Source: a virus. From it: a DNA stretch of 19,700 nt. The notes below the pieces were generated by a model. The model searched no databases, was not told the DNA's origin, and was given only the letters and a program-made list of their open reading frames with translations. Numbering within the stretch: the first letter of the stretch is position 1; each line of letters starts with the position of its first letter. Location of the stretch: the UHGV virus genome UHGV-1796434; one strand, written 5' to 3'. Shown one piece after another: positions 305-19,700 of the stretch. A program made the translations under genes and the position numbers.

Positions 305-307
305 GGA

Positions 308-3980: not shown

Positions 3981-5347
3981 TGCACTGGCACCTTCAGAGG
4001 GATCACCGGCACAAAGCCGGGATGCGTAATGGCATTACGCCGGATAATGTCCGCATCACGCGCCGCGTTATCAAACCAGGTCGCCGCCAGCACCAGCGCG
4101 GGTAAAACCTCATCCGGTGTGCGCTGAATGATCCGTGCAGACTGTTCAAGGCGCGTGTTGATATCCGCATTCAGATCTGCTTTCACCCGGCGCAGTGCCA
4201 GAAACAGCGCATCACTGGTTGTACGGGACAACTCCTTATCAATTGCCGTATTCAGTGTGTCGCGAATGTCAGTCAGTTCTTCCCACGTTGGCAGGTCAAC
4301 CGTGTTTTTCACCGCCGGTGCATTGTTCAGTGCCGGATGCGTGACGGAAGGCCAGCCAGTGCTCTGCGCAGGTGTTGTTGACTGCCCCACTGCGGCATTC
4401 TGCATCACCGCGGAAGTTGTTGGCGCAGGCAATCGGGTGACGGCATACGCCGCTTCGCTGATTGCGGTCGTACGAAGGGTGCTGGCAACCTCGTTACGCT
4501 GATGCGTCGCCGTGGCGGTGGTTTTACTGTCCGTTTTCCAGACGCCGCGCGGTTGCAGATCGCTGCCGAGGCTGACACCGGAAAGCGTTTTGATCATGGT
4601 GACCAGGTCGCTGGCGTTACCATAAAGGCGTTTCCCGGTACGCCACATTTTCTGCATCTGCTCAACGAAATTTTTGCCTGACGATGGTGGCGGCAGAAGT
4701 ACCGAGATATCCCCCTGCAACAGCCTGGCAGCATCCGATACGGCAGAATCCACCACTTTCATCGCATCAGAAACATACCCAAGCATTGTGCTGGCATTAC
4801 CGACGACGTCGTTCTGCACAAAATCCGCCACGCCATCGATACTGAAACCGCTGAAGCTGTCACTGATGCAGTCATCCAGTGCAGAACAGGATGACATCAG
4901 CGTCTGCGCCGTCGCCGCACCTGATGTGGGGTAAGAGAGTTCTCCCGCTTCGACAAACTTCAGGTCAAAGCGGACAATACGCCCTTCACTCTTCGATGTG
5001 CTGACCCGAACCTCTCCGTCAACACAGACTTTCAGCTCACCGTAAGTCGGATGGACAAGCGTGCCGGGACCGGGTTTATTCAGCGCGTCAATCAGACGAT
5101 CGCGCTGGTCAAAGCAGTCATCTCCCACCACATAAGCTGTGATGGACGGGCGGAAAGTGATTTTCCCCAGGTCTTCGGTATAGGGTTTGTCGCGGTTCGG
5201 GTATTCGTGCGTTTCCACACGACGACCGGTTCCCGCACTTTCTTCTTCAACCTTAAACGGCACACCGCGAAATGACGCGTCCTGAAGTCTGTCTTTCCAC
5301 GTCATATAAACTCCGTACATAAAAAATCCCACCGGAGTGGGACTCAT
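3977..5347 (-). CDS. Tail/DNA circulation protein (Mu gpN/gp43-like)
   Basis: 456 aa track ORF immediately downstream of the tape measure gene, the conserved Mu-like order. Confidence 0.6.
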   Translation of the reverse strand: MSPTPVGFFMYGVYMTWKDRLQDASFRGVPFKVEEESAGTGRRVETHEYPNRDKPYTEDLGKITFRPSITAYVVGDDCFDQRDRLIDALNKPGPGTLVHPTYGELKVCVDGEVRVSTSKSEGRIVRFDLKFVEAGELSYPTSGAATAQTLMSSCSALDDCISDSFSGFSIDGVADFVQNDVVGNASTMLGYVSDAMKVVDSAVSDAARLLQGDISVLLPPPSSGKNFVEQMQKMWRTGKRLYGNASDLVTMIKTLSGVSLGSDLQPRGVWKTDSKTTATATHQRNEVASTLRTTAISEAAYAVTRLPAPTTSAVMQNAAVGQSTTPAQSTGWPSVTHPALNNAPAVKNTVDLPTWEELTDIRDTLNTAIDKELSRTTSDALFLALRRVKADLNADINTRLEQSARIIQRTPDEVLPALVLAATWFDNAARDADIIRRNAITHPGFVPVIPLKVPVQ

Positions 5348-5365
5348 TAACAGATTAATTTTTCA

Positions 5366-7201
5366 TTACCTGCCAAAGCGCGTATAGCCAACATCATGGC
5401 TAACATCAAAACCGCTGGATCGCGTTTCCATAACCCGCATACCCGGAGGCGAATTCACAAAAGAGACCTTGATCTCACCATCAACTTTTGGCGCAGAAGC
5501 TTTGTTAATCATGAAGGGATTCGGGCCTGTGGCATCGGAGGCGTTGTTTGACTGAGCCGGATCTACCGCCTGATAAGGTGTGTATCCCCGCGCCGGTATT
5601 CCCGTCCCATAAGCATCATAAGCACCCGCGTCCCACTGCGCAGAGTTAATGGCATCGACCGTGTCACCGGAACTGTCGGTAAACCACTCAATAATTGGCT
5701 TCAGCTTGTCCCACATATCCTGAAACCACTTAACAACCGGTCCCCAGTTATTGATCACCATCCCCAGCGGCGACCAGGCAAAAACCTTCTTCAGAAGTTC
5801 CCAACCTGCCTCAAAATAAGGACCAATGGTTTCCCAGAGCTTCTTGAAATAAGGTCCGACAACATCCCAGTTAGTGATAATTAATCCCGCAGCCAGGGCT
5901 ATCGCCGTCGCAATCATTCCAATCGGCGTCATCGACATGATCCTGCTGACAATACTGATGGCACCGCCAACGCCCATCAATCCCAGTTTCAGAATCGCAA
6001 GACCGGCAGCAAGCCCGACGACGCCGCGAATAACCCGGGGATTTTCATCCGCAAACTTCGTGAATTTTTCCCCCAACTCCCCCAGCCATTGCGTGATATT
6101 TTTAGCGTCACCAGAAAATGCGCCGCCAATAGCTGCAAAACCGTTAGTTGCGGTCCCCGTCATTGCCTCCCACAGGTTGGACAGCGTACCAAGCTGTGCC
6201 TGAACACGTTTATTCAGGCTGGCCTGTTTATTCATCTTCTGCTGGATCTGATCGTAACCATCCTTTCCTTTATCGATCAGAGCATTGACCACCTGAAGGG
6301 TTTCGGCATCATCACCAAATATTGCCTTAAGTACACCTGTTCGCTTAACGTCGGTCAGTTTTCGCAGCTTTGCCAGTTGCTTAAACATGTTATCAAGACC
6401 GCCAAAACTCCCTTTGCCGTCAGTAAAATCGAGCTGCACTCCGAGTTTCTGGCGGGCCATGACTTTATTGACGTCCCTGATTTTCTTAACGCTTAATCCG
6501 GACTGGATAACTTTTCGCAGGGCATTACCTGCCGACTCCCCGTTCATCCCCATCTGATCCATCATGACGCTGATAGGGGCAAGGCTCTGTGCAGCCTGAA
6601 GACCGTCCTTATTCACCATCTTCAGAACAGAACTGGTTTTAGTGAAGAATGACAGCATGTTGGTATCGTCCACGCCCAGATAAAACGCCTTCTGAATTGT
6701 GTCGAACAGCCCCATCATGTCTTCTGAGGCCGTTCCGGTAGCATCCTGCATCTTTGCGGCAAACTCAGCAGCCGCTTCCGGTGTTTTTTTCAGTTGTACC
6801 GCAAGATAAGCTGTCGCTTTACCCACACCACCAAGAATGTTTTCTGCCGGGATCCCCTGACGCACCAGCATCTGCATCATGTTCTGGAAATCAGCCGTTG
6901 TACCGGGTAGCTGGTTACCCAGGCCAATAGCCAGTTTATTGATGTCCTGAAAGCGCTTTCCAACCTCGCCGTTCGCATCCATCATGGCGACTTTCAGCCC
7001 GGTAGCGGCGTTTTCCTGATCGGCATAAGATTTCAGGGAAAGCGTCAGCCCCGCTGCCAGTCCGCCACCAAGCGCCAGCCCACCCTGTGACGCTTCTTCC
7101 GCCTGGCGTTTAAATCCCCGGATTTTCTTTTGCATTTTCGACAGCGCGGGAGAAAGCCTGTCGACACCGGTGATCAACGCCTTAAGCTCAAATTCAGCCA
7201 T
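5366..7201 (-). CDS. Tail tape measure protein
   Basis: 611 aa track ORF; ATG at 7199-7201 with AGGAG upstream. Ala/Gly/Leu-rich helical N-half, hydrophobic glycine-zipper-like segment and position after the chaperone pair are typical of tape measure proteins. Confidence 0.75.
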   Translation of the reverse strand: MAEFELKALITGVDRLSPALSKMQKKIRGFKRQAEEASQGGLALGGGLAAGLTLSLKSYADQENAATGLKVAMMDANGEVGKRFQDINKLAIGLGNQLPGTTADFQNMMQMLVRQGIPAENILGGVGKATAYLAVQLKKTPEAAAEFAAKMQDATGTASEDMMGLFDTIQKAFYLGVDDTNMLSFFTKTSSVLKMVNKDGLQAAQSLAPISVMMDQMGMNGESAGNALRKVIQSGLSVKKIRDVNKVMARQKLGVQLDFTDGKGSFGGLDNMFKQLAKLRKLTDVKRTGVLKAIFGDDAETLQVVNALIDKGKDGYDQIQQKMNKQASLNKRVQAQLGTLSNLWEAMTGTATNGFAAIGGAFSGDAKNITQWLGELGEKFTKFADENPRVIRGVVGLAAGLAILKLGLMGVGGAISIVSRIMSMTPIGMIATAIALAAGLIITNWDVVGPYFKKLWETIGPYFEAGWELLKKVFAWSPLGMVINNWGPVVKWFQDMWDKLKPIIEWFTDSSGDTVDAINSAQWDAGAYDAYGTGIPARGYTPYQAVDPAQSNNASDATGPNPFMINKASAPKVDGEIKVSFVNSPPGMRVMETRSSGFDVSHDVGYTRFGR

Positions 7202-7376
7202 GTGTGCGTTTCTCCTGCTCTATCCTGTTTGCCTGACTGACCAGCAAGGGAATTTCACTGATCGGCATATTCAGCAATTCGAAGGGATTAATGCGCCAGT
7301 AGCTGGCGCAGTCAAAGAAGCGATCAGTGAGGTATTCAGCCGTCAGGCCTGGAGGAAAAAACCAGCCACAAGCCAC
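7194..7376 (-). CDS. Tail assembly chaperone, -1 frame extension (expressed by frameshift from 7343..7612)
   Basis: 60 aa track ORF in the -1 frame relative to the upstream chaperone ORF, overlapping its 3' end. The track start is a GTG; the likely real entry is the slippery site at about 7355-7361. Confidence 0.45.
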   Translation of the reverse strand: MACGWFFPPGLTAEYLTDRFFDCASYWRINPFELLNMPISEIPLLVSQANRIEQEKRTHG

Positions 7377-7612
7377 GCCGCTGCATTCAGGTCTGCCGGA
7401 GACATCTGGTCGACAGAGCTTTGCGGCACTTTCGCCAGCCGCACAATGTATTTCGACACCACATGCGCCAGAAGTCTGACGGACTCATCCTGATTCATCT
7501 GGTAGGGATACCCCAGCTCGCGGACATCCTTCCCGGTGGGTTCATCAAACTCCAGTACGGAGAGTGTCTCGCCATGAGCAATAATCGGTTTCTTTAACTC
7601 AAGCTCTTTCAT
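7343..7612 (-). CDS. Tail assembly chaperone (G-like)
   Basis: 89 aa track ORF between the tail tube and tape measure genes; ends ...AAWLVAGFFLQA with a T TTT TTC slippery heptamer near its stop. Confidence 0.55.
   Translation of the reverse strand: MKELELKKPIIAHGETLSVLEFDEPTGKDVRELGYPYQMNQDESVRLLAHVVSKYIVRLAKVPQSSVDQMSPADLNAAAWLVAGFFLQA
7355..7361 (-). other. -1 programmed frameshift slippery heptamer (T TTT TTC) in the tail assembly chaperone
   Basis: Minus-strand codons GCT GGT TTT TTC CTC CAG GCC TGA; the run is the complement of plus-strand a6 at 7356-7361. A -1 slip reads on into the 7194..7376 ORF. Confidence 0.45.
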
Positions 7613-7968
7613 TACTGGTAATCCCCTTCTTCACCGTGGAACTCAAGATCAACCGTGCCTTCTTCGGCATTATGGTTCGCTTCGCCGTGCAGCCAGGCAG
7701 ACGACAATACATAGACCTGACCGTTCGCCAGCTCGGCAGTGATGGTCATCTCAACAGACGAGGTGATTTTGCTCACCGGAAAATTCTTCGGCACCTTGAA
7801 GGTTCCTTTGACATAAGGCGCGCGGTGAGTTTCCTTGCGGTCCACTGAACCATCCAGACCGATGATGTCATCGTTAACCGTTTTGTTCATGGGCACCTCA
7901 ATGCCGCCGGTCAGCGATAGCTGCTGACCGTCAATTTTGAAATAACAGGTTCCCCCGATACGGGCCAT
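7612..7968 (-). CDS. Tail tube protein (Mu gpM-like)
   Basis: 118 aa track ORF immediately downstream of the sheath gene with overlapping stop/start. Confidence 0.65.
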   Translation of the reverse strand: MARIGGTCYFKIDGQQLSLTGGIEVPMNKTVNDDIIGLDGSVDRKETHRAPYVKGTFKVPKNFPVSKITSSVEMTITAELANGQVYVLSSAWLHGEANHNAEEGTVDLEFHGEEGDYQ

Positions 7969-9464
7969 TATGCAGACTCCTCTGAATACTGAAGACGGAA
8001 CTGGTTAACCACGGCAAAGACACGCAACTGGTTAACATAGTCAGGCGGGAACAGCGTGTTCAGGCGGTTCGGATCGCTGGCATCACGCTCCACAATCAGG
8101 TACTGCTTGAACAGTTCGTAGTTTTCCACGATCCCCGCACGCTCGAGCTGACGGTAGGTTGCCAGCAGTTCCCCTTTGATCACCGCCGGGGTGACAATCG
8201 CCTGACCGGGACCAAAGCGGGTACCGTCACTGGCAAGCTTGTGACGCCCGTACTTACTGGTAATGACGGATTTCAGTTTGCGCAGTACATACGCGCTGGT
8301 ATGCAGCGTCTCGCTGTCGAGGTAGCTGTTATCCGCAACACCGTAAGCGTTTTTCCTGTACGTGGTGACATCACGCTGAATGCGCAGCACCCCGCTTTCG
8401 ACATACGCCGTTGCCACGCCATGAGACAGCAGGGTCTGTTGTTCGGTCATCGTGAACCGTTTCCCCTTCGGCGCAGGCAGCATACCCACCAGCTCACCGG
8501 TCTGCGTGGGACGTGCCGGATCGTTGCGAATAAACACCGCTGCGCGGGCGGTACGGCTTGCCGCCAGCTCGTCGGCAGGCGTCTGGGTCTCTTTTTCGTA
8601 TCCCGCCAGGGTAATGTGCTGCTGGTTAAACTGGTCACCTGCGGTCACCAGTTCTGACAGCGTGCCGATCTTTGCCGTGTACACATGACCATACAGCTGA
8701 CGCGCATAGCTCCAGCGACCGCTGGTATCGTTCATCTCGGTCACCAGCGTGTTAACGGAGGCCGTGTCGTTGAACGGCAGGCCGATATAATCAAACGGCT
8801 CATCCGCCATTGCAGCCACCGCGCCGGTGAGAACAGGAGCGCCCGTTCCGGCGGTACCCGTCGCCACGGCAATCTGTACGCCCGCTGGCAGCACTTCGCC
8901 CCCACCAAAGCCGTAGTAATTGAGGCTGACAGGAATTTCATTCCCGCAAAGCCCCTTATGACGCGCGGTCAGTGTGACCACGCCTGCCGAAGATGAGGCA
9001 GTAAACGGCAGGGTCGGAACGGCATTGATGGCATCTTTGATACTGCTGGCAATCGTCGCGACGTTATCGCCGTTGGTCACCGGTGCCTGCACGCGGGTAC
9101 GTCCCACATAAACATTCACCGTGCCGGTTTCGGTTGCCGCGCCGGTCACCGTCAGCGTAACTGTTGCCGCCGCGCCCGTGGATTCAGGAACGGCAATCAC
9201 ATACAGTTCACCAAACGGGTCGGTCTGGCGATAAGCCTCGACCATACGCGCCAGCTGACTTCCCGCACCACAAATCTGGCGTGCATAGTCTGCCGATGGC
9301 ATCAGCACCAGACTGTTGGCAACAATCTCTGCACCGTTATTGGCATGACCAATCAGCAGCGATGCTCCGCTGTCCTGTGCAGTATTCGCCGCCGAGTTAT
9401 CCATTTCCGCATAAAAAATCGGAACCAGCGTATTCGACGGAATGGTGTTAAAGCTTATCGTCAT
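7968..9464 (-). CDS. Contractile tail sheath protein (Mu gpL-like)
   Basis: 498 aa track ORF; ATG verified at 9462-9464. Length, Gly/Thr/Ala-rich composition and position upstream of the tube gene. Confidence 0.8.
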   Translation of the reverse strand: MTISFNTIPSNTLVPIFYAEMDNSAANTAQDSGASLLIGHANNGAEIVANSLVLMPSADYARQICGAGSQLARMVEAYRQTDPFGELYVIAVPESTGAAATVTLTVTGAATETGTVNVYVGRTRVQAPVTNGDNVATIASSIKDAINAVPTLPFTASSSAGVVTLTARHKGLCGNEIPVSLNYYGFGGGEVLPAGVQIAVATGTAGTGAPVLTGAVAAMADEPFDYIGLPFNDTASVNTLVTEMNDTSGRWSYARQLYGHVYTAKIGTLSELVTAGDQFNQQHITLAGYEKETQTPADELAASRTARAAVFIRNDPARPTQTGELVGMLPAPKGKRFTMTEQQTLLSHGVATAYVESGVLRIQRDVTTYRKNAYGVADNSYLDSETLHTSAYVLRKLKSVITSKYGRHKLASDGTRFGPGQAIVTPAVIKGELLATYRQLERAGIVENYELFKQYLIVERDASDPNRLNTLFPPDYVNQLRVFAVVNQFRLQYSEESA

Positions 9465-9618
9465 CGGTATTCACCTTTTTATTCACGCGCCGGATATCAC
9501 CCGCTGCTTCACGGCGCAGCCAGTAGTTGTTCTCATCAACATTTCGCCCCTCGGCGGGCAAAAGGTCGCCGCGGGCAGGGTCAGGAACTGACCGCCCTTT
9601 AACAGGTTTCACAAACAT
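9448..9618 (-). CDS. Small protein (56 aa) immediately upstream of the sheath gene; possibly DUF2635-like
   Basis: Hand-translated, below the track size cutoff: ATG at 9616-9618, product MFVKPVKGRSVPDPARGDLLPAEGRNVDENNYWLRREAAGDIRRVNKKVNTDDDKL, stop TAA at 9448-9450, overlapping the sheath start by 17 nt. Family call is from memory. Confidence 0.35.
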   Translation of the reverse strand: MFVKPVKGRSVPDPARGDLLPAEGRNVDENNYWLRREAAGDIRRVNKKVNTDDDKL

Positions 9619-9626
9619 GAAGATTC

Positions 9627-10187
9627 TCAGGAAGGAAGGGTTATTTCGGTGTGATGTTCGATATCGCCGTCAGGCCCGTTACCGGGATCGAGATAATCAA
9701 CATCAATCGCCAGCGTTCGCAGTTCATCCAGACTGTTCAGGTCATCCTGCTGGCGGGTATCGTCTTCGGTCAGCTCGCTGATGACCGAAAAATCGAACTG
9801 ATAAATCAGCTCATGACGATTCAGATCCAGCAGCGTGCCGCCGTCATAGGTAATCGGGTTACCGCACGCTTCCGGGTTCCAGCCCAGCAGAGCCTTAAAG
9901 AGCATCTGCCGGACATCGTCCACCACATCATACGAGGCAAACTGACCGCGCTCATCACGCCCGTTACTCAGTATGACAACCACGGAGAAGCCCTCTTTCA
10001 GCTCCTGCCAGTAGTCGGTCTGGCTTTTGTTTTCTCCCGGAGAGTCATCACCCGGTACCACATACGCCGCCGGGAGTCTCAGCTTTCCGACCTCCGGCAG
10101 ATTTTTGAACTGTGCCGCGCCTGCCACCCGGTTTTCAAAATACGGGCAGCGGGCACGCAGTGCAGCAATAACAGGCGTCAGTTTCAT
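9627..10187 (-). CDS. Putative tail terminator/completion protein (Mu gp37-like)
   Basis: 186 aa track ORF between the neck genes and the sheath gene; call rests mainly on gene order. Confidence 0.4.
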   Translation of the reverse strand: MKLTPVIAALRARCPYFENRVAGAAQFKNLPEVGKLRLPAAYVVPGDDSPGENKSQTDYWQELKEGFSVVVILSNGRDERGQFASYDVVDDVRQMLFKALLGWNPEACGNPITYDGGTLLDLNRHELIYQFDFSVISELTEDDTRQQDDLNSLDELRTLAIDVDYLDPGNGPDGDIEHHTEITLPS

Positions 10188-10690
10188 CTGTGTCGTCGCT
10201 CCGGCTTCAGTGATTTACGCAATTCCCGCGCCAGAAAATAGCGTGTCCAGCTGCGGTTCTTTTCAAGCGTTTCCACCATAAAGTTATTACGTGGAGCCAG
10301 CCGCCAGCCGCTGCCACCGGATGCACCACGATGATGACTACGACGACGTTTTGCTCCTCCCCGGACACCAAAAAACAGAAACGCCGGATAGAAGTCACCA
10401 GAGATCATCCGGTTCCCCTTCCCGTTGCGCTGGTTAGGGGCAATGCGTGTCATAAAACCGGCTCGCTTTTTACTGGCTCTCGGCACCATGTAACCAATCG
10501 AACGAGCCAGGCGTCCGGTCTGATAACCGGGGTTTTCACCCGGTGCCGACCGCGCACGGCGCATCACCAGCCGACGGGCATCACGCATATGACGCTGCCC
10601 AATCGTGACAAACGCCCGCCGGACACGGGCGCGGTTAAAGCGCATCTCCGCGGGCTGCTGAACATCAACGTGAAAAAAGGGAGTCGCCAT
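10184..10690 (-). CDS. HK97 gp10-family neck/tail completion protein
   Basis: 168 aa basic track ORF following the head-tail adaptor gene; true start may lie downstream of the track start because it overlaps the upstream gene. Confidence 0.5.
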   Translation of the reverse strand: MATPFFHVDVQQPAEMRFNRARVRRAFVTIGQRHMRDARRLVMRRARSAPGENPGYQTGRLARSIGYMVPRASKKRAGFMTRIAPNQRNGKGNRMISGDFYPAFLFFGVRGGAKRRRSHHRGASGGSGWRLAPRNNFMVETLEKNRSWTRYFLARELRKSLKPERRHR

Positions 10691-11075
10691 TGCTGCCTCC
10701 GTGACTCTGCGTAAATTCGCCCAGTTCCGTACACTCCAGCAGCAGAAAGCGCCGCGCCCCGTTCAGATCGCGCTGACGTTTCACCCGGTACACACTGTCA
10801 TCACAGACCACCTCATAATCAGCAGTGATCCCCCGGCGGTAGCGAATGGTGATGTAATGGGTGATGGCGTCTCCGGTCTGCGCGGTTTCCTGCCAGGTGG
10901 TGGCACTGGTCTGGATAACCTTCGCCCATGTCCGGAACGTAACCGGGTATTGAGGCTCCACGCCAAAGTTATCCGCGGGCATATCCACCCGCAGGCGGAT
11001 CAGGACGCGTTTATTCAGTTCACCGGGGTCCGGCAGAATGTAGGTTGCGCTGGTCTGCGCCTGACGAATTTTCAT
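10665..11075 (-). CDS. Head-tail adaptor (head closure) protein
   Basis: 136 aa track ORF, second gene after the major capsid in the usual HK97-like order. Confidence 0.55.
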   Translation of the reverse strand: MKIRQAQTSATYILPDPGELNKRVLIRLRVDMPADNFGVEPQYPVTFRTWAKVIQTSATTWQETAQTGDAITHYITIRYRRGITADYEVVCDDSVYRVKRQRDLNGARRFLLLECTELGEFTQSHGGSNGDSLFSR

Positions 11076-11395
11076 TGCGGAAAGTACCTGTACGGGCCGA
11101 CAAGCCAGCCAAAACTCTGCGGCATGTCGAGTTTCTCCACTTCCGTAACCGACGAGCGGTTTTCGTAAAAATGGCTGATAAGCATCAGCATCCCCAGACG
11201 AATATCATCCGGCAGGTGCAGCCCGTCCGGATCGCTCTCCGGAATGGTTTCATCCGGTGCATAGAGCTTCCGGTTCAGATACGTTTCCGTCCGCTTTTGC
11301 GCCGCACAGGCCAGCAGTTGCAGATGGCGGTCATCAGCATCGAAATCCTCATCCAGCCGGAGTTGGGCTTTAATCTCTTCCATTGTCAGAAGCAT
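11072..11395 (-). CDS. Head-tail connector protein (gp6-like)
   Basis: 107 aa track ORF; sequence style and position typical of gp6-like connector proteins. Confidence 0.55.
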   Translation of the reverse strand: MLLTMEEIKAQLRLDEDFDADDRHLQLLACAAQKRTETYLNRKLYAPDETIPESDPDGLHLPDDIRLGMLMLISHFYENRSSVTEVEKLDMPQSFGWLVGPYRYFPQ

Positions 11396-11397
11396 AC

Positions 11398-11598
11398 TCA
11401 GCCCTCTTTACTGGCCGTGGCTTTTTTCTCTTTTGCCGCTTTACTGCTTTTTGCACTGGTTCCGCGCTCTGCTAACCCGGCCTGAAGTGCAATCTCCTGC
11501 ACCCGGGCAGGAAGCGCCCCGTCGTCATACTCACCGGCCCGAATGACCTCAACACGCATACCGTCCGGTGACCATTTCAGATCTTGTTTCAGGATCAT
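11398..11598 (-). CDS. Hypothetical small protein with Lys/Ala-rich C-terminal tail
   Basis: 66 aa track ORF between capsid and connector genes; ATG verified at 11596-11598. C-terminus TSAKSSKAAKEKKATASKEG is low complexity and basic. No family recognised. Confidence 0.35.
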   Translation of the reverse strand: MILKQDLKWSPDGMRVEVIRAGEYDDGALPARVQEIALQAGLAERGTSAKSSKAAKEKKATASKEG

Positions 11599-11620
11599 GA
11601 TTCTTCACCCGTCAGAACAG

Positions 11621-11640
11621 GGGGCGCGGTTCCGCGCCCC
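11621..11640 (-). other. GC-rich stem-loop immediately downstream of the major capsid gene
   Basis: GGGGCGCGG-TT-CCGCGCCCC at 11621-11640, between the capsid stop (11648) and the next start (11598). No U-tract, so more likely an mRNA stability or processing element than a terminator. Confidence 0.3.
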
Positions 11641-11647
11641 TGAGTGA

Positions 11648-12853
11648 TTACGCCGCTGCAATCTTCAGCAGTTTGATGGCCTGCGAATCGACCAGCATCC
11701 CGCCGGTGCGCTTGGTGGTATAAAAACCGACAAACGGTTTATTGGTGTACGGGTCACGCAGAATGCGGGTGCCGATACGGTCAACGATGGTGTAACCCCG
11801 TTTGAAGTTACCAAATGCAATGGCTTTCGCATCAGCGGCGATATCCGGCATCTGTTCGTTTTCAGCGATACCGTAACCCGCCAGAGAGGACGGCTGCCCC
11901 AGTTCCAGCCCCGGACGCCACAGATAGTTACCCTCGGTGTCTTTCAGCAGACGGATGGCAAACAGGCTGTTGTTGTTCATCATGAACTTCGCGCCAGTGC
12001 GGTGTGCCTTACGCAGCGTGTAAATCAGTTTGATAATGGCGTCTGCGGTCACCGCGGTCGCTTCGCCGGATACAATATGCTGAAGTTTGCCGAACGCCCG
12101 GACCTTGTCGGTTTCATCAGTGGATTCATACGCCAGGAACCCTTTCGGCTTCTTGGTGCCATCGCCTGAGGTAAAGGCAATTTCTTCCTGTTCGGCAAAT
12201 TCGGTTGCCAGCTCGCTGTTGATCCAGGCCTCCACGTTGAAGAAGGCATCGTCCAGCATTTTCTGGGTAGCCTGCGGGTTGCCGTAGATTTCCCCCATGA
12301 GAGGTTCAATCAGCTCCAGTCTGGAGGTGGCAGTCTGGGATCGCGTATCCGTTTCCCCCACCCACCCGGAAGCCGTACCGCCCAGATTCACCAGTTTTTT
12401 GTAGTCGGAACCGCCAACGGTGATCACCGTGGCTTCCTGACGCATCACCACTTCATCTTTCAGCAGGTTAAGAATGTTGCGATCCAGTTCTTCCGGCACG
12501 GCGTAGCCACCGTCTTCATCGGTACCCACCTGCAATGCCTTACGCTCCAGATCGCGCAGACCGTCTTCACGGCCTTTACGTAGAAAGCCCACAAACGCCT
12601 CTTTATGCTCGGTGGCCAGTTTATTTTGCGCTCCACCTGCCGGACGTTTCAGCTCAAGCAGCTCTTTTTCAAGGTCGCTTTTGAGATTTTCCAGCTCGCT
12701 GAGTTTCCCGTTCAGGGTTTCCACCTGCCCGGCAAGCTTGCCTTTTTCCTGCTCAATCGCATCCACGCGCTTGTCGTTCTTTGCTTTGAAGTCGTCAAAC
12801 TTCTGCTGCAGCTCCTGCGCGACCTGTTCGACATCTTTAATATCAACCGCCAT
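11648..12853 (-). CDS. Major capsid protein, HK97 family
   Basis: 401 aa track ORF; ATG at 12851-12853 with AGGAGA SD. Charged coiled-coil-like N-terminal segment followed by a capsid-type body; position after the protease. Confidence 0.8.
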   Translation of the reverse strand: MAVDIKDVEQVAQELQQKFDDFKAKNDKRVDAIEQEKGKLAGQVETLNGKLSELENLKSDLEKELLELKRPAGGAQNKLATEHKEAFVGFLRKGREDGLRDLERKALQVGTDEDGGYAVPEELDRNILNLLKDEVVMRQEATVITVGGSDYKKLVNLGGTASGWVGETDTRSQTATSRLELIEPLMGEIYGNPQATQKMLDDAFFNVEAWINSELATEFAEQEEIAFTSGDGTKKPKGFLAYESTDETDKVRAFGKLQHIVSGEATAVTADAIIKLIYTLRKAHRTGAKFMMNNNSLFAIRLLKDTEGNYLWRPGLELGQPSSLAGYGIAENEQMPDIAADAKAIAFGNFKRGYTIVDRIGTRILRDPYTNKPFVGFYTTKRTGGMLVDSQAIKLLKIAAA

Positions 12854-12867
12854 CGTATTTCTCCTGA

Positions 12868-13518
12868 TTAGAAGTTCAGATTTTTCAGTGCATTTAGTGC
12901 AGAGCCCACATCCTCAGCGTCGCGCAGGGACAGTGCGCCATAGCCCCCGGCCATGAATGCTTTGGCCTGGGTACGGGAGAGTCCGACATCACGCAGGACT
13001 CTTTCGATTTTTTTCTGTTCGGGGATTTCCCCGCGGGCCAGCGCGTTCTTGACGTCGCTGATCCGCGCCTCGTCGTTAGACGGAAACGTCACCAGACTGA
13101 CTTCCCAGAGGTCGATTTCTTTCAACAGAAAGGCTTCTTTGCTCCGGTCGTATTCCCAGTCTTTCAGGACGTACCCAATAGAAAGGCCGGTTAACGAACC
13201 GGCCTTCATGTGTGCATGTGCGCGTTTTGCGAGGGGATCATCATCAATAAGCAACCGTCCCCTGACGTAAAGCCCGACATCGTCTTCCTTCATTTCGGTG
13301 TAAACACCGATGGGTTCATCCATGCGGTGCTGCCAGAGCAGCGCAGGTAACGCTTTTCTGTCACTCCACGCCCGCAGGGAAGCAGCAAATGCCCCGGACA
13401 TCACCACATCATCGTGGCTGTCCTTTACACCAAAGACGGAGCCATACCCTTCAAACTCACCGGAGTCACTGACAGATTTCAGACTCAGCGGTACATCAAG
13501 ACGTTGTTTCGTCTGCAT
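12868..13518 (-). CDS. Prohead maturation protease, HK97 family
   Basis: Track ORF is 12868..13554 (228 aa). I prefer the internal ATG at 13516-13518, which has an AAGGA SD 8 nt upstream, whereas the first ATG has none. Product starts MQTKQRLDV... with an SGEFEGYGSVFGVKDSHDDVV motif typical of HK97-type proteases. Confidence 0.7.
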   Translation of the reverse strand: MQTKQRLDVPLSLKSVSDSGEFEGYGSVFGVKDSHDDVVMSGAFAASLRAWSDRKALPALLWQHRMDEPIGVYTEMKEDDVGLYVRGRLLIDDDPLAKRAHAHMKAGSLTGLSIGYVLKDWEYDRSKEAFLLKEIDLWEVSLVTFPSNDEARISDVKNALARGEIPEQKKIERVLRDVGLSRTQAKAFMAGGYGALSLRDAEDVGSALNALKNLNF

Positions 13519-14737
13519 TGGCGTTATCCTTCTGCTTACCGGCTTTACTGCCATCGGAGGGTTTCGTGGTCATGTTCATCGGTGTGAGATAGACATCCCC
13601 ACCGGGACGCGGATTCATATCTTCCAGGCCGCGGCAGTCATTGGGAGAGTAAATTCCCCAGTTAATCCCGGTGGCGTAGGCTTCAAAACGGGACTTCATA
13701 TCCCCGCGCAGTAACGCCCCGGCGTTAAATTTGGCGTAATAAACGCCCTGCTTACTTTTTCGTACCAGTCCGGTGTTGATCCGCTGCTCAATGCGGGTCA
13801 GATACGGCACCAGTGAATAGTTGATAAATCCGAGCCCCAGCTCTTCGATATTGTTGAAGGTGGCGCGATCGGTGTTCTGCACCATGTGCAACGGCACCCG
13901 GAACAGACGACAAATTTCTTCAAGCTGAAACTTGCGGGTTTCCAGGAACTGGCTGTCCTCTGCGTTCAACGCCATCGACTTCCAGTCCAGCCCCATCTCA
14001 AGGATCATCGGGCGGTGAGCATTGCCAAGCCCGGTGTGACGCTCCTCAAAATCTTTCTTCAGGCGCTCATAAGCCTGATCCGACAGCGTCTGCTCTGTAC
14101 GCAAAACACCCGACGTCACCGCGCCATTGCTGAACAGTCTGGCCCCGTGCTCTTCGGTCGCTGCCGCCAGCGATATTGCCTCGCGGGCATAGGCGATGGG
14201 ATTCAGCCCCACCAGTCCGTCCAGCGTCAGCGTACGCACATGCCAGATATCCTCCTGGCTCAGTACATCCGTGGAGCCATCCGGGAATGTGACCTGATAG
14301 ACCGGTTCCCAGCTACTGTTAAGCTTCGGTACCACACAGCCGGGATCGACGGGCAGCAGTTCAGCCACTTCGCCAAATGCTTTCACTTTGTAGGCGTAAA
14401 AGTTTCCCCGCAGGCACAGACAGGTGACCACCAGCTCCCAGAACTCCTGCGGCGTCATATAGCCATTGGGATGCGTGGAGATCAGTTTATGCAGACGTTC
14501 GCCGGTGGCTCTCTGCTTCAGGCTGCCGTTCAGGTGATACAGATTGCAGGGCAACATCCCGACCGACTCTGCCAGCACTCTGACGCAGGAAAAAACCGCC
14601 GTCAGTCGCATAGCCCGCTGACTGCTGATCTGCTTTCCGGTATAGGTGTCATACGACAGCCCGATGGCATCCGCCAGCTCTGCTGGCGTGGTCACCGGTG
14701 CGTCACTTTTTCGTTGAAATAATCCCGAAAAGAACAC
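13496..14737 (-). CDS. Portal protein, HK97 family
   Basis: 413 aa track ORF; GTG start at 14735-14737 with GGAGGT SD, overlapping the stop of the upstream small ORF by 1 nt. Confidence 0.8.
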   Translation of the reverse strand: MFFSGLFQRKSDAPVTTPAELADAIGLSYDTYTGKQISSQRAMRLTAVFSCVRVLAESVGMLPCNLYHLNGSLKQRATGERLHKLISTHPNGYMTPQEFWELVVTCLCLRGNFYAYKVKAFGEVAELLPVDPGCVVPKLNSSWEPVYQVTFPDGSTDVLSQEDIWHVRTLTLDGLVGLNPIAYAREAISLAAATEEHGARLFSNGAVTSGVLRTEQTLSDQAYERLKKDFEERHTGLGNAHRPMILEMGLDWKSMALNAEDSQFLETRKFQLEEICRLFRVPLHMVQNTDRATFNNIEELGLGFINYSLVPYLTRIEQRINTGLVRKSKQGVYYAKFNAGALLRGDMKSRFEAYATGINWGIYSPNDCRGLEDMNPRPGGDVYLTPMNMTTKPSDGSKAGKQKDNANADETTS

Positions 14738-14919
14738 TATTTACCTCCGCCGACAGACGACTGTGTACGGTCGAGATATCGCGCCACCAGCCACGACCAG
14801 AACAGGCACAGCGCCCCGGCAACAACAAAACCCGCCGGGGGATAAATCAGCCAGGCACCATACGCCAGCAAAAGCGCACCCAGCACGCCCACCAGAGGCG
14901 CGAGAATCAGCATGATCAT
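14737..14919 (-). CDS. Small hydrophobic protein with two predicted transmembrane segments
   Basis: 60 aa track [66 protein letters not shown] at 14917-14919 with GAGGT SD placed just after the terminase stop; its stop overlaps the portal start. Confidence 0.45.
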
Positions 14920-14930
14920 AATTACCTCAG

Positions 14931-16664
14931 TTAAAGCGAGCGGATCCCGTAGGACTCAATGTGATCAGACAGCGTGTCTTCTTTCTCGTACAGCATGGCT
15001 CTGCCAACCGCCATAATCAGCGCAACTGCACCATCGATTTTGTTTTCCGCCTGCTCCTTGACGGGCTTCACCACATCATCGTTACCCGGAATGGTTTTGC
15101 CGACCACGTTGCCGATACACCAGGTCATGATGGGATTGCCGTCATGATGAAAGCGCCCCGATTCAATCGCCGCTTCCAGCTCTTTCATCGGATCGGACAT
15201 GTTGGTGTAGTTCTGAATGATGGTGACGGGGTTCAGGTCTTCATCAGCAAGGTCATGTGACAGCCCGGTCGCCCCGAAGGGGTCGATGGGTGACTCACTG
15301 ACCGGGCTGATTTTGTTCGCCGCTTTGGCCTCTTCGAGGATGTAGCGATAATCCACCTCCGCACCATCGGTAACGGTCAGAACGCCCATTTCCACCCATT
15401 TCTGAAAGCGTTCGGCTGTCCGGCGATCTTCATTTTTCTCGACGCTGTACACCGTGTCATACGGTACCCAGAAACGCGGGGCCACACTGTAGTAATGCGT
15501 TTTACCGTCAATCTCGCGGGTATAAAGTCGCGCCATGCTGTTCATATCCAGCTTACGCGCCAGGTCAAAGGCCAGAATGCACGGCTGCCCCTCGAACTGC
15601 TCAAGGGTCAGTGATTTATCCTCGCAGCTCTGCCAGCTCACCAGGTTGAAATACGCCGAACGCGCCGACACCCAGATATTGAGGTGTTTTGTTTTAAAGA
15701 CGTTTGCCAGACGGGCGTTATTTTTCGCACGCTGCTGCTGACTTAACAAAAATTCGCGATAAACCGACACGCCAATATTTGGATTGGCTTTTTCCAGCAC
15801 CTGCGGGTCGGTCCAGTCGTCACCTTCATCAACGGTATAGATGATCCCGAACAGTTCATCGTTTGGCACCGAGCCGTTGAGCATCTCGATGACTTCCCGC
15901 CGTTTGTCGTAGCACGGCCCCTCAATGTTGTACCCGGCGGTGGTAATGGCCCACATCAGTGGCTGGCGTCGCGCCCCCATCCCGGTAAGCATCGTGGTGT
16001 AAAGCGCATCTGTGGCGTGCTCGTGATATTCATCCACCACGGCACAGTGGGGTGATGAACCATCACCGGGGTTACCGATCAGCGGTTCAAACCGCGCACC
16101 ATCCTCCGGACGGTTCATGTTTGAGGCGTTAACCTCAATCCCGAACGCTTCCGTCAGCATGGGTGTGCGTTTACACATCAGTCGCGCCGGGCGAAAGACT
16201 TCCCACGCCTGTTTCTCTGTCGTGGCACCGGAATACACTTCCGCGCCGAACTCGTTATCACAGGCAAAACAATACAGGGCAACACCGGCAGAGATTGCCG
16301 ATTTGCCGTTCTTACGGGGAATTTCGGTATACACCTCCCGGAAGCGGCGCAACCGGGTGCCTTTATTGACCCAGCCAAACGCACAGCAGATCACAAATAG
16401 CTGCCACGGCTCCAGCGTGATGGGCATCCGTTTAAATGCCCACTCACCCTTGGTGTGCGGCAACAGCTGAATAAATTTGGCGGCCCGTTCAGCCAGGTCC
16501 TTGTCGAAGCGGTAACGAAACGACTTACTTTTTTCCGCCATCAGGTCATCAAGATGGCGCTGGCAGGCCTGAATCACAAACTGGCAGGCAATAATCTTTC
16601 CGCGCACGACATCCCGGGCATACTGATTTGCAGCATTTACGTTGGGGTAAGATTTCCGGCTCAT
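14931..16664 (-). CDS. Terminase large subunit
   Basis: 577 aa track ORF; ATG at 16662-16664 overlapping the small-subunit stop (ATGA). Contains a P-loop-like PRKNGKS segment; length and position typical. Confidence 0.85.
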
Positions 16665-17155
16665 GATTCGATAATTTTCAGAAACGGGTTAGTGGCTTTC
16701 TTCTTCCCCGCCAGGCCAATCAGACGCTGGCGGCTGCTGGGGTCGAGTCCGAGCATTGCCCCCGTACTGCTCATCTCGGACTCCTGTTCTTTTTTGGCGG
16801 TCAGCTCCGGATTTTTGACCATACCGCCCATTGCACCGGTGATGGTGTTGCCCTGTCTGGCAATATTTTTCACGGCACGTCGCCAGAACTCGTAGGCCAC
16901 GCACCACCGCTCAAGCACCGCGAGGTCAGTCACGCACAGCAGGCCCTGACCGCAGAGTTCTTTGGTTGTCAGTTGCCACATGATCGTGGCGAGAGGGAGA
17001 TCTTCTTCAGCGAACCACTCCGGTGGCTCAACACCTTTGATGGGCGTAAAAACAGGTTCATCTTTATTCAGGGCTCGCTTGCCGGGGTTTCCGGCCAGCG
17101 CCTTGCGCGCCGTTGGCTTGGGGCGACGCCCGGAACGCCCCGCCGTTCCAGCCAT
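16661..17155 (-). CDS. Terminase small subunit (P27 family)
   Basis: Track ORF starts at GTG 17164; I prefer the ATG at 17153-17155 ([14 protein letters not shown]...), which has AGGAG 8 nt upstream. Family call from memory of P27-type small subunits. Confidence 0.7.
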
Positions 17156-17205
17156 ATGCGGCACTCCTGGTTAAATTTCATTTTTCGCGGGTATAAAAAA
17201 ACGAT

Positions 17206-17254
17206 GGGGCGGGCAGTCCGGAAGACGTCAGGCCGCAGGGATTTGACCCGCCCC
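17206..17254. promoter_or_regulatory. GC-rich inverted repeat in the HNH-terminase intergenic region; candidate cos/terminase recognition region or terminator
   Basis: GGGGCGGG at 17206-17213 and CCCGCCCC at 17247-17254 flank a 33 nt spacer containing GACGTC; on the minus strand the distal arm is followed by a T7 run. Location matches where HK97-like phages place cos. Confidence 0.3.
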
Positions 17255-17280
17255 TCCCCTCAGGCAGTTGAGAATTATTA

Positions 17281-17631
17281 TCACTTCAACCGTTCACGGG
17301 CCGTCTTCGCCTTATGACACGGCCAGCACAGACTCTGCAGATTACAGTCGGCATCAGTGCCGCCATGCGCTTTAGGGATGATGTGGTCAACGGTTTTCGC
17401 CTCGCGCACCACACCAGCACGCAGGCACAACTGGCATAAACCTTTGTCACGTTTCAGCACACGCGTGCGGATAACGTCCCACTTCGAACCGTAGCCGCGC
17501 TGATGACGGGATTGTCCTGGCTTGTATTGCTTCCAGCCTTCGCTTTTGTGGCTTTCGCAATAACCTGACGGGTCAGTGGTGGTATGGCGGCACCCGCGAA
17601 CACGGCAGGCTTTTGGTGTGCGTGGTGGCAT
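17281..17631 (-). CDS. HNH endonuclease (terminase-associated)
   Basis: 116 aa track ORF; ATG at 17629-17631 with AAGGA SD. N-terminal Cys cluster (CRVRGC...C) and C-terminal HNH motif (DHIIPKAHGG...N...LCWPCH). Sits immediately upstream of the terminase genes, as in HK97-like phages. Confidence 0.8.
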   Translation of the reverse strand: MPPRTPKACRVRGCRHTTTDPSGYCESHKSEGWKQYKPGQSRHQRGYGSKWDVIRTRVLKRDKGLCQLCLRAGVVREAKTVDHIIPKAHGGTDADCNLQSLCWPCHKAKTARERLK

Positions 17632-17720
17632 TATCCGTCCTTCGGTGATGTAGCTGCTTCTGTTGGGTTCATAGTTGAAATCCTGTTACGCCATAGCAAT
17701 GTATCTGCCATCATAATGGC

Positions 17721-17747
17721 AATAAAAAAGCCCCGCGATTGCGGGGC
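17721..17747 (-). terminator. Rho-independent terminator after the 133 aa gene
   Basis: Minus-strand reading AGCCCCGC-AATC-GCGGGGCT followed by TTTTTTAT: an 8 bp GC-rich stem, 4 nt loop and U-tract, about 20 nt downstream of the stop. Confidence 0.55.
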
Positions 17748-17765
17748 TGATGGTTATATAAAATA

Positions 17766-18167
17766 TTAGCCAATTAAGTCGTCAATTTTTTTCTGAATAT
17801 AACCATCCAGCAAACGCCTTGAAACGTCAACTAATGTTCCAATGCTTGCATCTTTAAAGCCGGTCTTGAGAGAATTCCAAACCTCTTTATTCCTGAGAGC
17901 TTCAAGGAAGTCATGACCGCTTGAAGTTAATCGTAACGGTATAACGAACCATGATCCTCCATCAGCAGCCTCAGAGAAACCAAACCCATACTTGCCGTCT
18001 GTTCTAGCAATTAGTTGACGATCAGCCAATAAACGCATATGGAATAAAAATTCATCGGTGCTGTAGTCATACCCAGCCAGCTGCAGCTGCTTTATATCAG
18101 TATGCGGCTCTTCAGACGCCTCGAAAGCTTCCAAAAGACCTTTCAAATACTCGTGATCTATTTTCAT
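17766..18167 (-). CDS. Hypothetical protein, 133 aa (possibly DUF2513-like)
   Basis: Track ORF with ATG at 18165-18167 and AAGGGAA SD 5 nt upstream; followed by a rho-independent terminator. Lies in AT-rich DNA. DUF2513 resemblance is from memory only. Confidence 0.5.
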   Translation of the reverse strand: MKIDHEYLKGLLEAFEASEEPHTDIKQLQLAGYDYSTDEFLFHMRLLADRQLIARTDGKYGFGFSEAADGGSWFVIPLRLTSSGHDFLEALRNKEVWNSLKTGFKDASIGTLVDVSRRLLDGYIQKKIDDLIG

Positions 18168-18241
18168 AACATTCCCTTTTATGAATGAGGGAATAATTTA
18201 ACATTAAACTAGGCACTTGATGAATACTTGGCGTAATGTCG

Positions 18242-18436
18242 CTAGTGGTCGAGTTGCAATACACCGTGATTCAGTAACTCTAAATAAGCGATGAGCCCGG
18301 CATAAACGGGGATAAACTCACAATCATCTTCGAATTCTGGGATTATTCCGGTTGCGATGGTGTATTGAGGCTGGCTATCTTCCTTCGCGAAGGATGCAAG
18401 GTCTTCAAACTGCTTAGCTGTAAGAACCACTGTCAT
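18242..18436 (-). CDS. Hypothetical small acidic protein, 64 aa
   Basis: Track ORF MTVVLTAKQFEDLASFAKEDSQPQYTIATGIIPEFEDDCEFIPVYAGLIAYLELLNHGVLQLDH, with 11 Asp/Glu against 2 Lys. Start lies directly after the upstream terminator hairpin. No family recognised. Confidence 0.4.
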   Translation of the reverse strand: MTVVLTAKQFEDLASFAKEDSQPQYTIATGIIPEFEDDCEFIPVYAGLIAYLELLNHGVLQLDH

Positions 18437-18448
18437 ACCTCTGTCGTT

Positions 18449-18473
18449 AAAAAGCCTCGCTATTGCGAGGCTT
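18449..18473 (-). terminator. Terminator-like hairpin after the 73 aa gene
   Basis: Minus-strand reading AAGCCTCGC-AATA-GCGAGGCTT followed by TTTAA; the short U-tract runs into the SD and start region of the next ORF, so termination may be partial. Confidence 0.45.
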
Positions 18474-18490
18474 GGTTCGGAAGCTGATTA

Positions 18491-18712
18491 TTACTTGGTG
18501 AAGTGTCTGATAGCCTTCTCAACTTTTTCGTCAGTGACCATACCGTCACAACGTGCGACGTTATAACTTATCCCGTCTAGTTCGTACTCCTCGATAGGCA
18601 TAGTAAGCACGCCGCCCTTGTCACCCCTGAAGGTAACAATCTCCAGGTCGTCCTGGACAACAACATGATCAAACGCGTCACCCGGTAAAATAGCTATGAC
18701 ATTCTTTGGCAT
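18491..18712 (-). CDS. Hypothetical small protein, 73 aa
   Basis: Track ORF is 18491..18760 from a GTG. I prefer the ATG at 18710-18712 (MPKNVIAILPGDAFDHVVVQDD...), preceded by AAGGGG with 6 nt spacing. Followed by a terminator hairpin. Confidence 0.45.
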   Translation of the reverse strand: MPKNVIAILPGDAFDHVVVQDDLEIVTFRGDKGGVLTMPIEEYELDGISYNVARCDGMVTDEKVEKAIRHFTK

Positions 18713-18760
18713 TTTTATCCCCTTTTTTTTGCGGAGGATTAAATTACCACATTCATTCAC

Positions 18761-19006
18761 TTATGAACCAGATTCAGCTTCAAACCACAGTAGTGTGTCT
18801 TCCGACTCTTTGATAGCTTTCGTCGTTCTGGCTACCAGCCCGCTTTCAGATGTTACCCAGCTTAACTGGTTCACAAAGATTTGATACTTCAACGGATCGT
18901 CACCAACAAACTTAATCGCGTCTGCTGCAGCGGCGGTGTCATAGTACAGTTTCGCCAGCAGGTTTAAGCGGATCTGCTATGCAGGTGTAACCGTGATTTT
19001 AGACAT
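18761..19006 (-). pseudogene. Small ORF (about 81 codons) interrupted by an in-frame amber codon at codon 10
   Basis: Hand translation from ATG 19004-19006 (AGGGGA SD 6 nt upstream): MSKITVTPA, then TAG at about 18977-18979, then the frame stays open for 71 codons (QIRLNLLAKLYYDTAAAADAIKFVGDDPLKYQIFVNQLSWVTSESGLVARTTKAIKESEDTLLWFEAESGS) to TAA at 18761-18763. No in-frame ATG downstream of the TAG. Confidence 0.4.
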
Positions 19007-19121
19007 TGTTTATCCCCTGGTGGGTATATTTATTGTCTTATCCGCTTGTTGGGATATCCATTATCAAAGCCACTCTGCAAGGAATGGCTTTTATGATGGC
19101 AATAAAAACAGTCGTAGGAGG

Positions 19122-19370
19122 TTAGATTAAGTCTTCACGTTTTTCATATTCATCGATATGATAAAGATGCATAAACTTTTCATCATGCCCACCAAATATC
19201 TGTGTTATCGATTCGTCATCCCGGCCTTCAACAATTAAATGCTTTTCATGTGTTCCTGGCATAAATAACGCCTTTACAACATATTCTAAGTGGTGTTTGA
19301 ACTGTACGTGAAGCTCTCTTGCATCCTCAAAAGGAATATTTTCGGTAAGTTCAAAATAACGAAATGCCAT
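19122..19370 (-). CDS. Hypothetical small acidic, His-rich protein, 82 aa
   Basis: Track ORF; ATG at 19368-19370 with GGGAGGT SD 4 nt upstream. Product MAFRYFELTENIPFEDARELHVQFKHHLEYVV... has several His residues and is AT-rich in codon usage. No family recognised. Confidence 0.5.
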   Translation of the reverse strand: MAFRYFELTENIPFEDARELHVQFKHHLEYVVKALFMPGTHEKHLIVEGRDDESITQIFGGHDEKFMHLYHIDEYEKREDLI

Positions 19371-19413
19371 ATCTACCTCCCGTATAATGAGAGCTCATCA
19401 TTAATGAATTTTC

Positions 19414-19431
19414 TTGTCATGACAATGACAA
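19414..19431. promoter_or_regulatory. Operator-like palindrome TTGTCATGACAA plus an extra TGACAA half-site, upstream of the 82 aa gene
   Basis: Perfect 12 bp palindrome at 19414-19425 followed by a direct repeat of the half-site at 19426-19431, about 45-60 nt upstream of the 82 aa gene start and overlapping TTGTCA -35-like hexamers on the minus strand. Confidence 0.3.
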
Positions 19432-19700
19432 ATTATTTCAGGTTCCATTAGATATAGCTTTGTAATGAACTGGCACTTATCTCAACACAGCCCTTACCGC
19501 GCGCCAGATGCTCAATATCAAGCATCAGCAATGAGATGTTTAATCTGGATTCGCTCCAGAAGTAAGCACCACCCTGTCTACAGAGCCAGATGTGAAGGAT
19601 GATTGATCCTACCCACGTAATATGGACACAGGCCTAAGCGAGGTTCTTGTTTTCAAATTGTTCCGGACTGAGGCCGCCACACCAACTGTGCCGCCGCCAC

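Follow-up and report, generated by a model that had tools for sequence, protein, structure and literature searches.

What are five small, AT-rich open reading frames (ORFs) doing immediately upstream of the packaging genes of an SfV-like prophage? The question is raised by the UHGV virus genome UHGV-1796434, a stretch of 19,700 nucleotides (hereafter the window), in which the window sequence and ORF calls place five small co-directional ORFs on the minus strand at 17766–19370. A first-pass annotation had read this cluster as horizontally acquired cargo occupying the position where lysis genes would be expected. Our analysis indicates with high confidence that the region is a variable accessory-gene slot, located between the lysis cassette and the HNH-cos-terminase module of the prophage. 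We also consider it probable that the account given below, comprising the slot cargo, its expression and its function, is the best explanation taken as a whole. Within it, the most likely class of function, which we put forward tentatively, is that one or more of the genes act in genetic conflict, through counter-defence, exclusion or regulation.

In the direction of transcription, the cluster comprises orf82 (19122–19370, minus strand; 82 residues, GC content 35%, isoelectric point (pI) 5.21), a DUF2560 frame (18761–19006, minus strand; 81 codons with a TAG at codon 10, pI 4.89), orf73 (18491–18712, minus strand; 73 residues, pI 4.64), orf64 (18242–18436, minus strand; 64 residues, pI 4.05) and the DUF2513 gene (17766–18167, minus strand; 133 residues, pI 5.14). 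A Shine-Dalgarno sequence of the GGAGG/GGGGA/AGAGG type lies 5–9 nt 5′ of the ATG in each of the five, and the sequence bears out the earlier description of co-directional small ORFs with their own ribosome-binding sites and two intrinsic terminators. The acidity noted at that stage extends to all five products (pI 4.05–5.21). None of them contains a transmembrane segment, the maximum Kyte-Doolittle hydropathy over a 19-residue window being at most 1.31 in all five, and none matches a lysis family in Pfam or PHROG, in line with the reported lack of holin-like or lysozyme-like features. The products are small soluble cytoplasmic proteins.

The boundary with the packaging genes is sharp. In SfV, 26 bp separate Rz1 from the start of the HNH gene and the slot is empty; because the SfV HNH gene starts so close to Rz1, the cluster is an insertion, and because SfV has none of the genes they are dispensable for this phage type. 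In a five-way alignment of SfV, SfII, vB_EcoM-689R6, O157 and the window, the HNH ATG is the exact point at which homology sets in, and the upstream sequences are unrelated, so that the comparison with related SfV-like phages suggested in the first-pass annotation does reveal an insertion. Judging from this alignment, the gene encoding the HNH endonuclease (17281–17631, minus strand; Pfam HNH, 5e-15), the first of the conserved HNH-cos-terminase packaging module, closes the variable slot on its downstream side as a fixed border. Positions 1–17632 of the window, with the packaging (HNH-cos-TerS-TerL), head and tail genes, share 97% identity with Escherichia phage vB_EcoM-689R6, the Shigella phages SfII, SfI, SfIV and SfV provide equally close matches ending at 17204–17280, and the linear records of SfII and SfV have their ends in the interval from HNH to TerS; the labels "SfV-like" and "HNH-cos-terminase" were therefore right. 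Deposited phages offer no match to 17600–19448 at the DNA level, and the five genes were not found at that level in SfV, SfII, SfI, SfIV or vB_EcoM-689R6. The GC content falls sharply at approximately 17640, from 55.6% over 1–17640 to 41.9% over 17640–19450; the drop reported previously is real, whereas the range of 28–40% quoted for it overstates the drop in the mean.

The same slot is variably filled among close relatives. SfII carries an IS911 remnant and a 206-residue ORF, vB_EcoM-689R6 a 168-residue ORF, and O157:H7 again has different contents. Other E. coli prophages with 95–97% identical HNH-TerS segments harbor an opposite-strand iss/bor lipoprotein gene, unrelated hypothetical genes (a 145-residue ORF among them) or orf64 and DUF2513 only. 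Among 5426 complete E. coli genomes, HNH-TerS is present in 1100, the full cluster in 6 and the orf64–DUF2513 pair in 10. Absence from SfV, variable filling and this disparity in frequency uphold the proposal of horizontally acquired cargo with defined boundaries. A tblastn co-occurrence table of all fetched loci shows that the five families occur separately, with linkage solely between DUF2560 and orf73: orf82 is found alone in E. coli S1, Serratia, Scandinavium and Enterobacter, orf64 without DUF2513 in mEp390, N15 and Citrobacter, and DUF2513 without the other four in about 60 loci. Because the five genes travel independently, they do not constitute a conserved multi-gene system, and their distribution marks them as mobile singly or in pairs. 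They occupy the post-lysis slot beside lambda Nu1/GpA, P22-type, Terminase_2/3/6 and HK97-type HNH/Terminase_4 packaging modules. As the same genes accompany such different modules, the slot behaves as a cargo site that lambdoid phages have in common.

The opposite border explains why the lysis genes had seemed to be missing from their usual position. The cluster is preceded by the 3′ part of a 61-residue post-Rz ORF (19449–19603, minus strand), which is truncated by IS3; this ORF is matched at 92–96% by Sf6 gene 65, epsilon34 gene 67 and HK620, is frequent in lambdoid and P22-like phages and is present in 1922 of the 5426 genomes. An alignment break marks the terminal 97 bp of IS3 (19604–19700): identity between strain MEI7BO1-21 and the window ends at 19603, and the IS3 end has matches in thousands of places, which carry the annotation "IS3-like element IS3 family transposase". 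The exact junction at 19604 was not found among the complete E. coli genomes listed, and the window prophage may for this reason be defective. Intact E. coli relatives that carry the full cluster show the order Q, two opposite-strand genes, lambda-type holin, GH24 lysozyme and Rz-type protein, followed by the 61-residue ORF, orf82, DUF2560, orf73, orf64, DUF2513, HNH, TerS and TerL. The lysis cassette thus sits just upstream, with holin, GH24 lysozyme and Rz directly preceding the slot in these relatives; here it is cut off by IS3 from 19604 and hidden from view, not replaced by the cluster.

A lysis function for the cluster was ruled out by the lack of transmembrane segments, the lack of Pfam or PHROG lysis-family matches and the presence of the true cassette upstream in relatives. 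A looser connection, in which the genes would encode auxiliary lysis-timing or DNA-packaging factors, draws on position: in all contexts read, orf64 is at most a few genes away from the spanin genes and usually follows them directly, and DUF2513 of enterobacterial prophages is usually among the last genes before the terminase. SfV and many relatives, however, possess the same lysis and packaging genes without the cluster genes, four terminase types accompany the same genes, phage Chlobot has its DUF2513 gene near xis/int, and in many phyla the gene stands by itself on the chromosome. We consider such an auxiliary role very unlikely, and retain the view of the region as a slot for accessory cargo.

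Could the cargo instead be decaying junk, that is, functionless remnants of past insertions? The ratios of nonsynonymous to synonymous substitution rates (dN/dS) are 0.06–0.13 for orf82, 0.12 for orf73 and 0.09 for orf64, so that the intact genes for which comparisons are informative are under purifying selection (dN/dS approximately 0.1). Because of these values and of the 129 homologue clusters of DUF2513, the cluster ORFs are genuine genes rather than chance frames. The DUF2560 frame is the member to which decay would apply. It scores above the family threshold (PF10834, 6e-13, 49.2 bits against a cutoff of 25; phrog_571) with a reading frame that is not intact, and it is therefore a family member by descent: an amber codon (TAG at 18979–18977) interrupts it, and the gene is likely to be a pseudogene or to yield an N-terminally truncated product. 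In Citrobacter, the copies located 5′ of orf73 have been disrupted independently, through a frameshift plus a stop (loci L076–L079, approximately 4700–4990), next to an intact orf73, and DUF2560 appears to be decaying in these prophages. Junk status for the whole cluster could invoke these two independent interruptions, the presence of IS3 in the prophage and one relative's annotated DUF2560 coding sequence that is long enough to span orf73; it is contradicted by the low dN/dS of orf82, orf73 and orf64, by the 46–60% identity retained by DUF2513 across phyla and by the intact Shine-Dalgarno sequences of all four intact genes, and we regard it as highly improbable.

The neighbor of the DUF2560 frame, orf73, represents an orphan family with no match in Pfam, PHROG, NCBIfam, PADLOC or the PDB. 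Its homologues make up only 12 clusters in a set of 5.8 billion proteins and 24 representatives in one of 1.84 billion; 10 of these representatives were scanned and had no Pfam or PHROG match. All loci read have the gene in the post-lysis slot. The long coding sequence mentioned above belongs to E. coli strain 2c3 (locus L085, 2392–2817), in which a single annotated 141-residue "DUF2560 family protein" covers the orf73 position; from the annotation alone, it looks like a mutation-caused fusion.

Two intrinsic terminators delimit the downstream part of the cluster. The first, 3′ of the DUF2513 gene (17729–17748, minus strand), was detected by a terminator scan and consists of an 8-bp stem with seven GC pairs followed by TTTTTTATT; its RNA folds with −17.2 kcal/mol (z = −3.9 relative to shuffles). 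The second, directly 5′ of orf64 (approximately 18450–18473, minus strand), reads AGCCTCGC-AATA-GCGAGGCT followed by TTTTTAA and folds with −16.2 kcal/mol (z = −4.2 relative to shuffles). This hairpin is also present in strain BS15R-A, there directly 3′ of lysC, with a compensatory change of its outer pair from G-C to A-U, and phage N15 has an annotated terminator at the equivalent place 5′ of gp56. Megablast homology with BS15R-A-type prophages stops at approximately 18470, and the hairpin is the 5′ border of an orf64–DUF2513 module. A search of Rfam for non-coding RNAs returned nothing above any gathering score, the sole matches being weak and terminator-driven.

We propose that the cluster was built from at least three independently acquired AT-rich modules, which correspond to orf82 with its promoter-like element, to the decaying DUF2560 together with orf73, and to orf64 with DUF2513 between terminators. 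Since the genes share the orientation of the late operon and lie behind terminators, they would mainly be transcribed late in lytic growth by Q-antiterminated RNA polymerase. For orf64 and DUF2513, the gap of only about 14 nt between the hairpin and the orf64 ATG, combined with terminators on both sides, points to expression that is mainly Q-antiterminated and late-lytic; a pair bracketed in this way, with no room for a promoter, would not behave as a prophage-expressed moron. In addition, orf82 may be expressed in the lysogen from a promoter of its own.

The candidate for this promoter is a sigma-70-like element found by a consensus scan (19397–19425, minus strand; TTGTCA, 17 nt, AATGAT), located approximately 27 nt 5′ of the orf82 ATG and overlapping a TTGTCAT/ATGACAA palindrome. 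The TTGNCA-17-NATGAT arrangement is kept 5′ of the Enterobacter and Serratia orf82 homologues, more weakly in Scandinavium, within flanks that diverge. At the consensus level, the element fits a moron-type promoter. An operator role for the palindrome TTGTCATGACAA is not supported, as the palindrome is not conserved in other genera.

The orf82 product belongs to an orphan family with only 11 clusters, all from Enterobacterales where the source names the organism. Its predicted structure (predicted local distance difference test (pLDDT) score of 86) adopts a ferredoxin-like β-α-β-α-β fold, and the histidines H21, H26 and H71 are invariant and form a conserved histidine cluster. Small ferredoxin-fold proteins such as GhoS and Cas2-like proteins provide the nearest known comparison. 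We examined whether orf82 could be part of a GhoS/GhoT-like type V toxin–antitoxin system, which pairs a ferredoxin-like antitoxin with an adjacent small membrane toxin gene, or of a type I system, and rejected this reading for want of such a toxin gene: the hydrophobic antisense ORFs at 18993–19130 and 19006–19125 (plus strand), which resembled small membrane toxins, are interrupted in E. coli S1 and missing from Serratia. We read them as chance frames, because T-rich strands give hydrophobic frames.

Two further observations concern the sequence 3′ of orf82. A long imperfect hairpin occupies 19030–19121 (minus strand; −22.9 kcal/mol, z = −2.7) without a U-tract; conservation of an RNA structure is suggested by the Serratia homologue, which has a hairpin of different sequence at the equivalent position. 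The window contains exactly two copies of the 13-mer TTTTTATTGCCAT (0.02 expected), at 17716–17728 and 19096–19108 on the minus strand, one copy lying 3′ of the DUF2513 terminator stem and the other 3′ of the orf82 stop; TTTTTATTG is also found 3′ of the Serratia orf82 homologue. Such a sequence may mark module boundaries or serve recombination in common.

If one or more of the genes were expressed in the lysogen, they might be prophage-expressed defence or superinfection-exclusion morons that protect it, comparable to HK97 gp15, P22 SieA or BstA-type proteins. The lysogen-expressed bor/iss genes in the slot of relatives, the positional conservation of the orf82 promoter-like element, the 35% GC content of this gene and the proximity of a DUF2513 gene to a restriction enzyme gene in Thiothrix (see below) speak for this possibility. 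It is opposed by the lack of a PADLOC match for all five products, by the lack of any membrane protein among them, by the terminator directly 5′ of the orf64–DUF2513 pair, which leaves no room for a promoter, and by the lack of a conserved partner gene. On balance, we find it quite doubtful that one or more of the genes defend the lysogen in this way, and favor predominantly late expression of slot cargo.

The most acidic product, that of orf64 (11 aspartate and glutamate against 2 lysine and arginine residues), belongs to phrog_9518 (3e-34), which is the family of phage N15 gp56 and mEp390_053. Homologues were detected by tblastn in mEp390, N15 (gp56) and other genomes, just 3′ of the lysis cassette in the contexts read; such a placement is seen in N15, mEp390, BS15R-A and Citrobacter prophages. 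N15 gp56 and the orf64 product share 46% identity over 61 residues, and both genes lie just after the lysis genes and are preceded by a terminator. They differ in their surroundings, as gp56 neighbors gp57 and a methylase whereas orf64 neighbors DUF2513 here, and N15 gp56 is itself uncharacterised. Comparison of orf64 with the anti-restriction proteins Ocr and ArdA yielded no Pfam match and no PDB sequence match.

The composition of orf64 leads to another alternative, namely that the cluster encodes late-expressed counter-defence or host-takeover inhibitors, small acidic proteins (orf64 especially) that block a host DNA-binding or defence protein, along with a DUF2513 protein that binds DNA. 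In keeping with it, all five products are acidic, that of orf64 extremely so, and they are small, soluble and subject to purifying selection; the genes run in the direction of the late operon, behind terminators, and the winged-helix model of DUF2513 is of high confidence. Yet sequence comparison matches none of the products to ArdA, Ocr or another anti-restriction family of Pfam, late timing does not suit inhibitors needed at DNA entry, and DUF2513 is frequent outside phages. We therefore deem this alternative unlikely in its specific form and keep to the broader conflict-related class, in which the intracellular targets of the products would be nucleic acids or proteins of the host or of competitors, and their role would not be in lysis or packaging.

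The DUF2513 protein is the most informative member of the cluster with respect to distribution. It matches Pfam PF10711 above the gathering threshold (2e-13, 50.8 bits against a cutoff of 29.6) over 98 of the 100 profile positions, and the 120 of its 129 homologue clusters that are listed mostly have about 135 residues. An AlphaFold2 model (pLDDT 96.4) shows a winged helix-turn-helix (wHTH) domain with a long four-strand wing, followed by three C-terminal helices, and the protein is thus a predicted winged-helix protein that probably binds DNA. Eight residues are invariant among 50 aligned sequences. Members of the close subfamily, with 38–62% identity, come from Alpha-, Beta- and Gammaproteobacteria, Planctomycetota, Flavobacterium and Nitrospirota; about 50–60% identity is kept between E. 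coli prophages and metagenome-assembled genomes of the last three groups. The gene exceeds its flanks in AT content at 32 of 32 loci, with a mean difference of 11.5 points. Enterobacterial prophages carry it between the lysis and terminase genes, next to or at most two genes away from the terminase or HNH gene. All-against-all clustering of neighbors across the 32 loci revealed no conserved partner and returned enterobacterial lysis and terminase genes only; a Pfam scan of 106 neighbors outside Enterobacterales identified 79 families, all 25 of those listed being seen once. These features mark DUF2513 as a widely transferred single-gene element.

MarR-, PadR- and YjcQ-type wHTH proteins have the predicted winged-helix fold in common with DUF2513. 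The latter differs in its longer four-strand wing, its three extra C-terminal helices, its overall acidity and its solitary occurrence in most genomes, and it has neither a cognate operator nor a regulated neighbor, no neighbor being conserved in the 32 loci compared. It belongs to none of the MarR, PadR or related Pfam families, PF10711 being the only match at E ≤ 1, and a profile search of the PDB returned no sequence match. Literature searches on DUF2513, PF10711, the RefSeq accessions and N15 gp56 retrieved nothing relevant; DUF2560 is mentioned in two papers. The earlier statement that no product belongs to a characterised family holds in that none is characterised, but two are Pfam families (DUF2513 and DUF2560) and one belongs to the N15 gp56 family.

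Several individual loci illustrate the settings in which DUF2513 genes are found. Two of them are solitary: in Herminiimonas (locus L037), direct repeats of about 60 nt with 79% identity (7903–7965 and 8422–8485) bracket the gene, and 17-nt perfect direct repeats (5744–5760 and 6787–6803) do so in a Myxococcales metagenome-assembled genome (locus L016); these repeats may be insertion footprints. An integron-cassette origin was unsupported, as Herminiimonas has one flanking repeat pair without an array and Aeromonas lacks an attC-like series. In Thiothrix nivea (locus L010, 2773–6408), DUF2513 lies 30 bp 3′ of a co-directional gene for a 1065-residue Type ISP/MmeI-like restriction-modification enzyme and is followed by two more unannotated genes.

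A more specific version of the conflict-related function would make DUF2513 a self-contained single-gene mobile conflict factor, which silences or excludes incoming DNA or blocks host defence, with orf82, orf73 and orf64 as counter-defence inhibitors of the post-lysis slot; we regard this version as rather improbable. Several results weigh against a conflict-related reading altogether. No product matches a PADLOC-DB 2.0 defence model at E ≤ 1, NCBIfam likewise yields no match, by which a known defence system is rejected, and Pfam reveals no known defence or anti-defence family among the five. PDB sequence searches, with single sequences for four proteins and profiles for three, gave nothing significant. 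Outside Enterobacterales, DUF2513 stands alone amid unrelated housekeeping genes, so its role need not be phage-related. Late expression is atypical for classical anti-restriction proteins. As for expression, promoter-like sites in the region show no excess over shuffles, and the promoter evidence is at the consensus level. In this prophage, moreover, IS3 lies between the cluster and the late promoter side, and the genes may therefore lack normal expression here.

The intact relatives also point to a second variable cargo slot in this prophage family. In one of them (locus L001, 9553–11755), the opposite-strand pair that separates Q from the holin gene encodes a nucleoid-associated protein and a 392-residue hypothetical protein, and other relatives have a DNA methyltransferase gene between Q and holin.

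Variable slots in temperate phages are a repeated source of new defence and counter-defence genes. The present slot is now bounded precisely, from Rz/Rz1 to the HNH start codon, in SfV-like and other lambdoid prophages, and at least five small gene families circulate in it across phages with different packaging machines. A winged-helix protein modelled with high confidence, two orphan families and an acidic N15 gp56-like protein are the resulting candidates for functional screens.

Among known systems, the closest parallel is with the morons of lambdoid phages, a concept of accessory cargo that reportedly stems from Juhala, Hendrix and colleagues (HK97/HK022). The cluster is ordinary phage mosaicism that carries genes of unknown function, and not a new mechanism or system. 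Like lambdoid morons, it lies between co-linear and near-identical late genes, is patchily present, differs in base composition from its surroundings and is bounded by terminators, and in relatives iss/bor sits at this very slot. Bor/Iss is, in contrast, encoded by an opposite-strand lipoprotein gene that is expressed in the lysogen, whereas the cluster is co-directional with the late operon and encodes small cytoplasmic proteins. With respect to the promoter and terminator that a moron would carry as its own, the terminators are strong and the sole promoter candidate is the consensus-level element 5′ of orf82, whose position is conserved.

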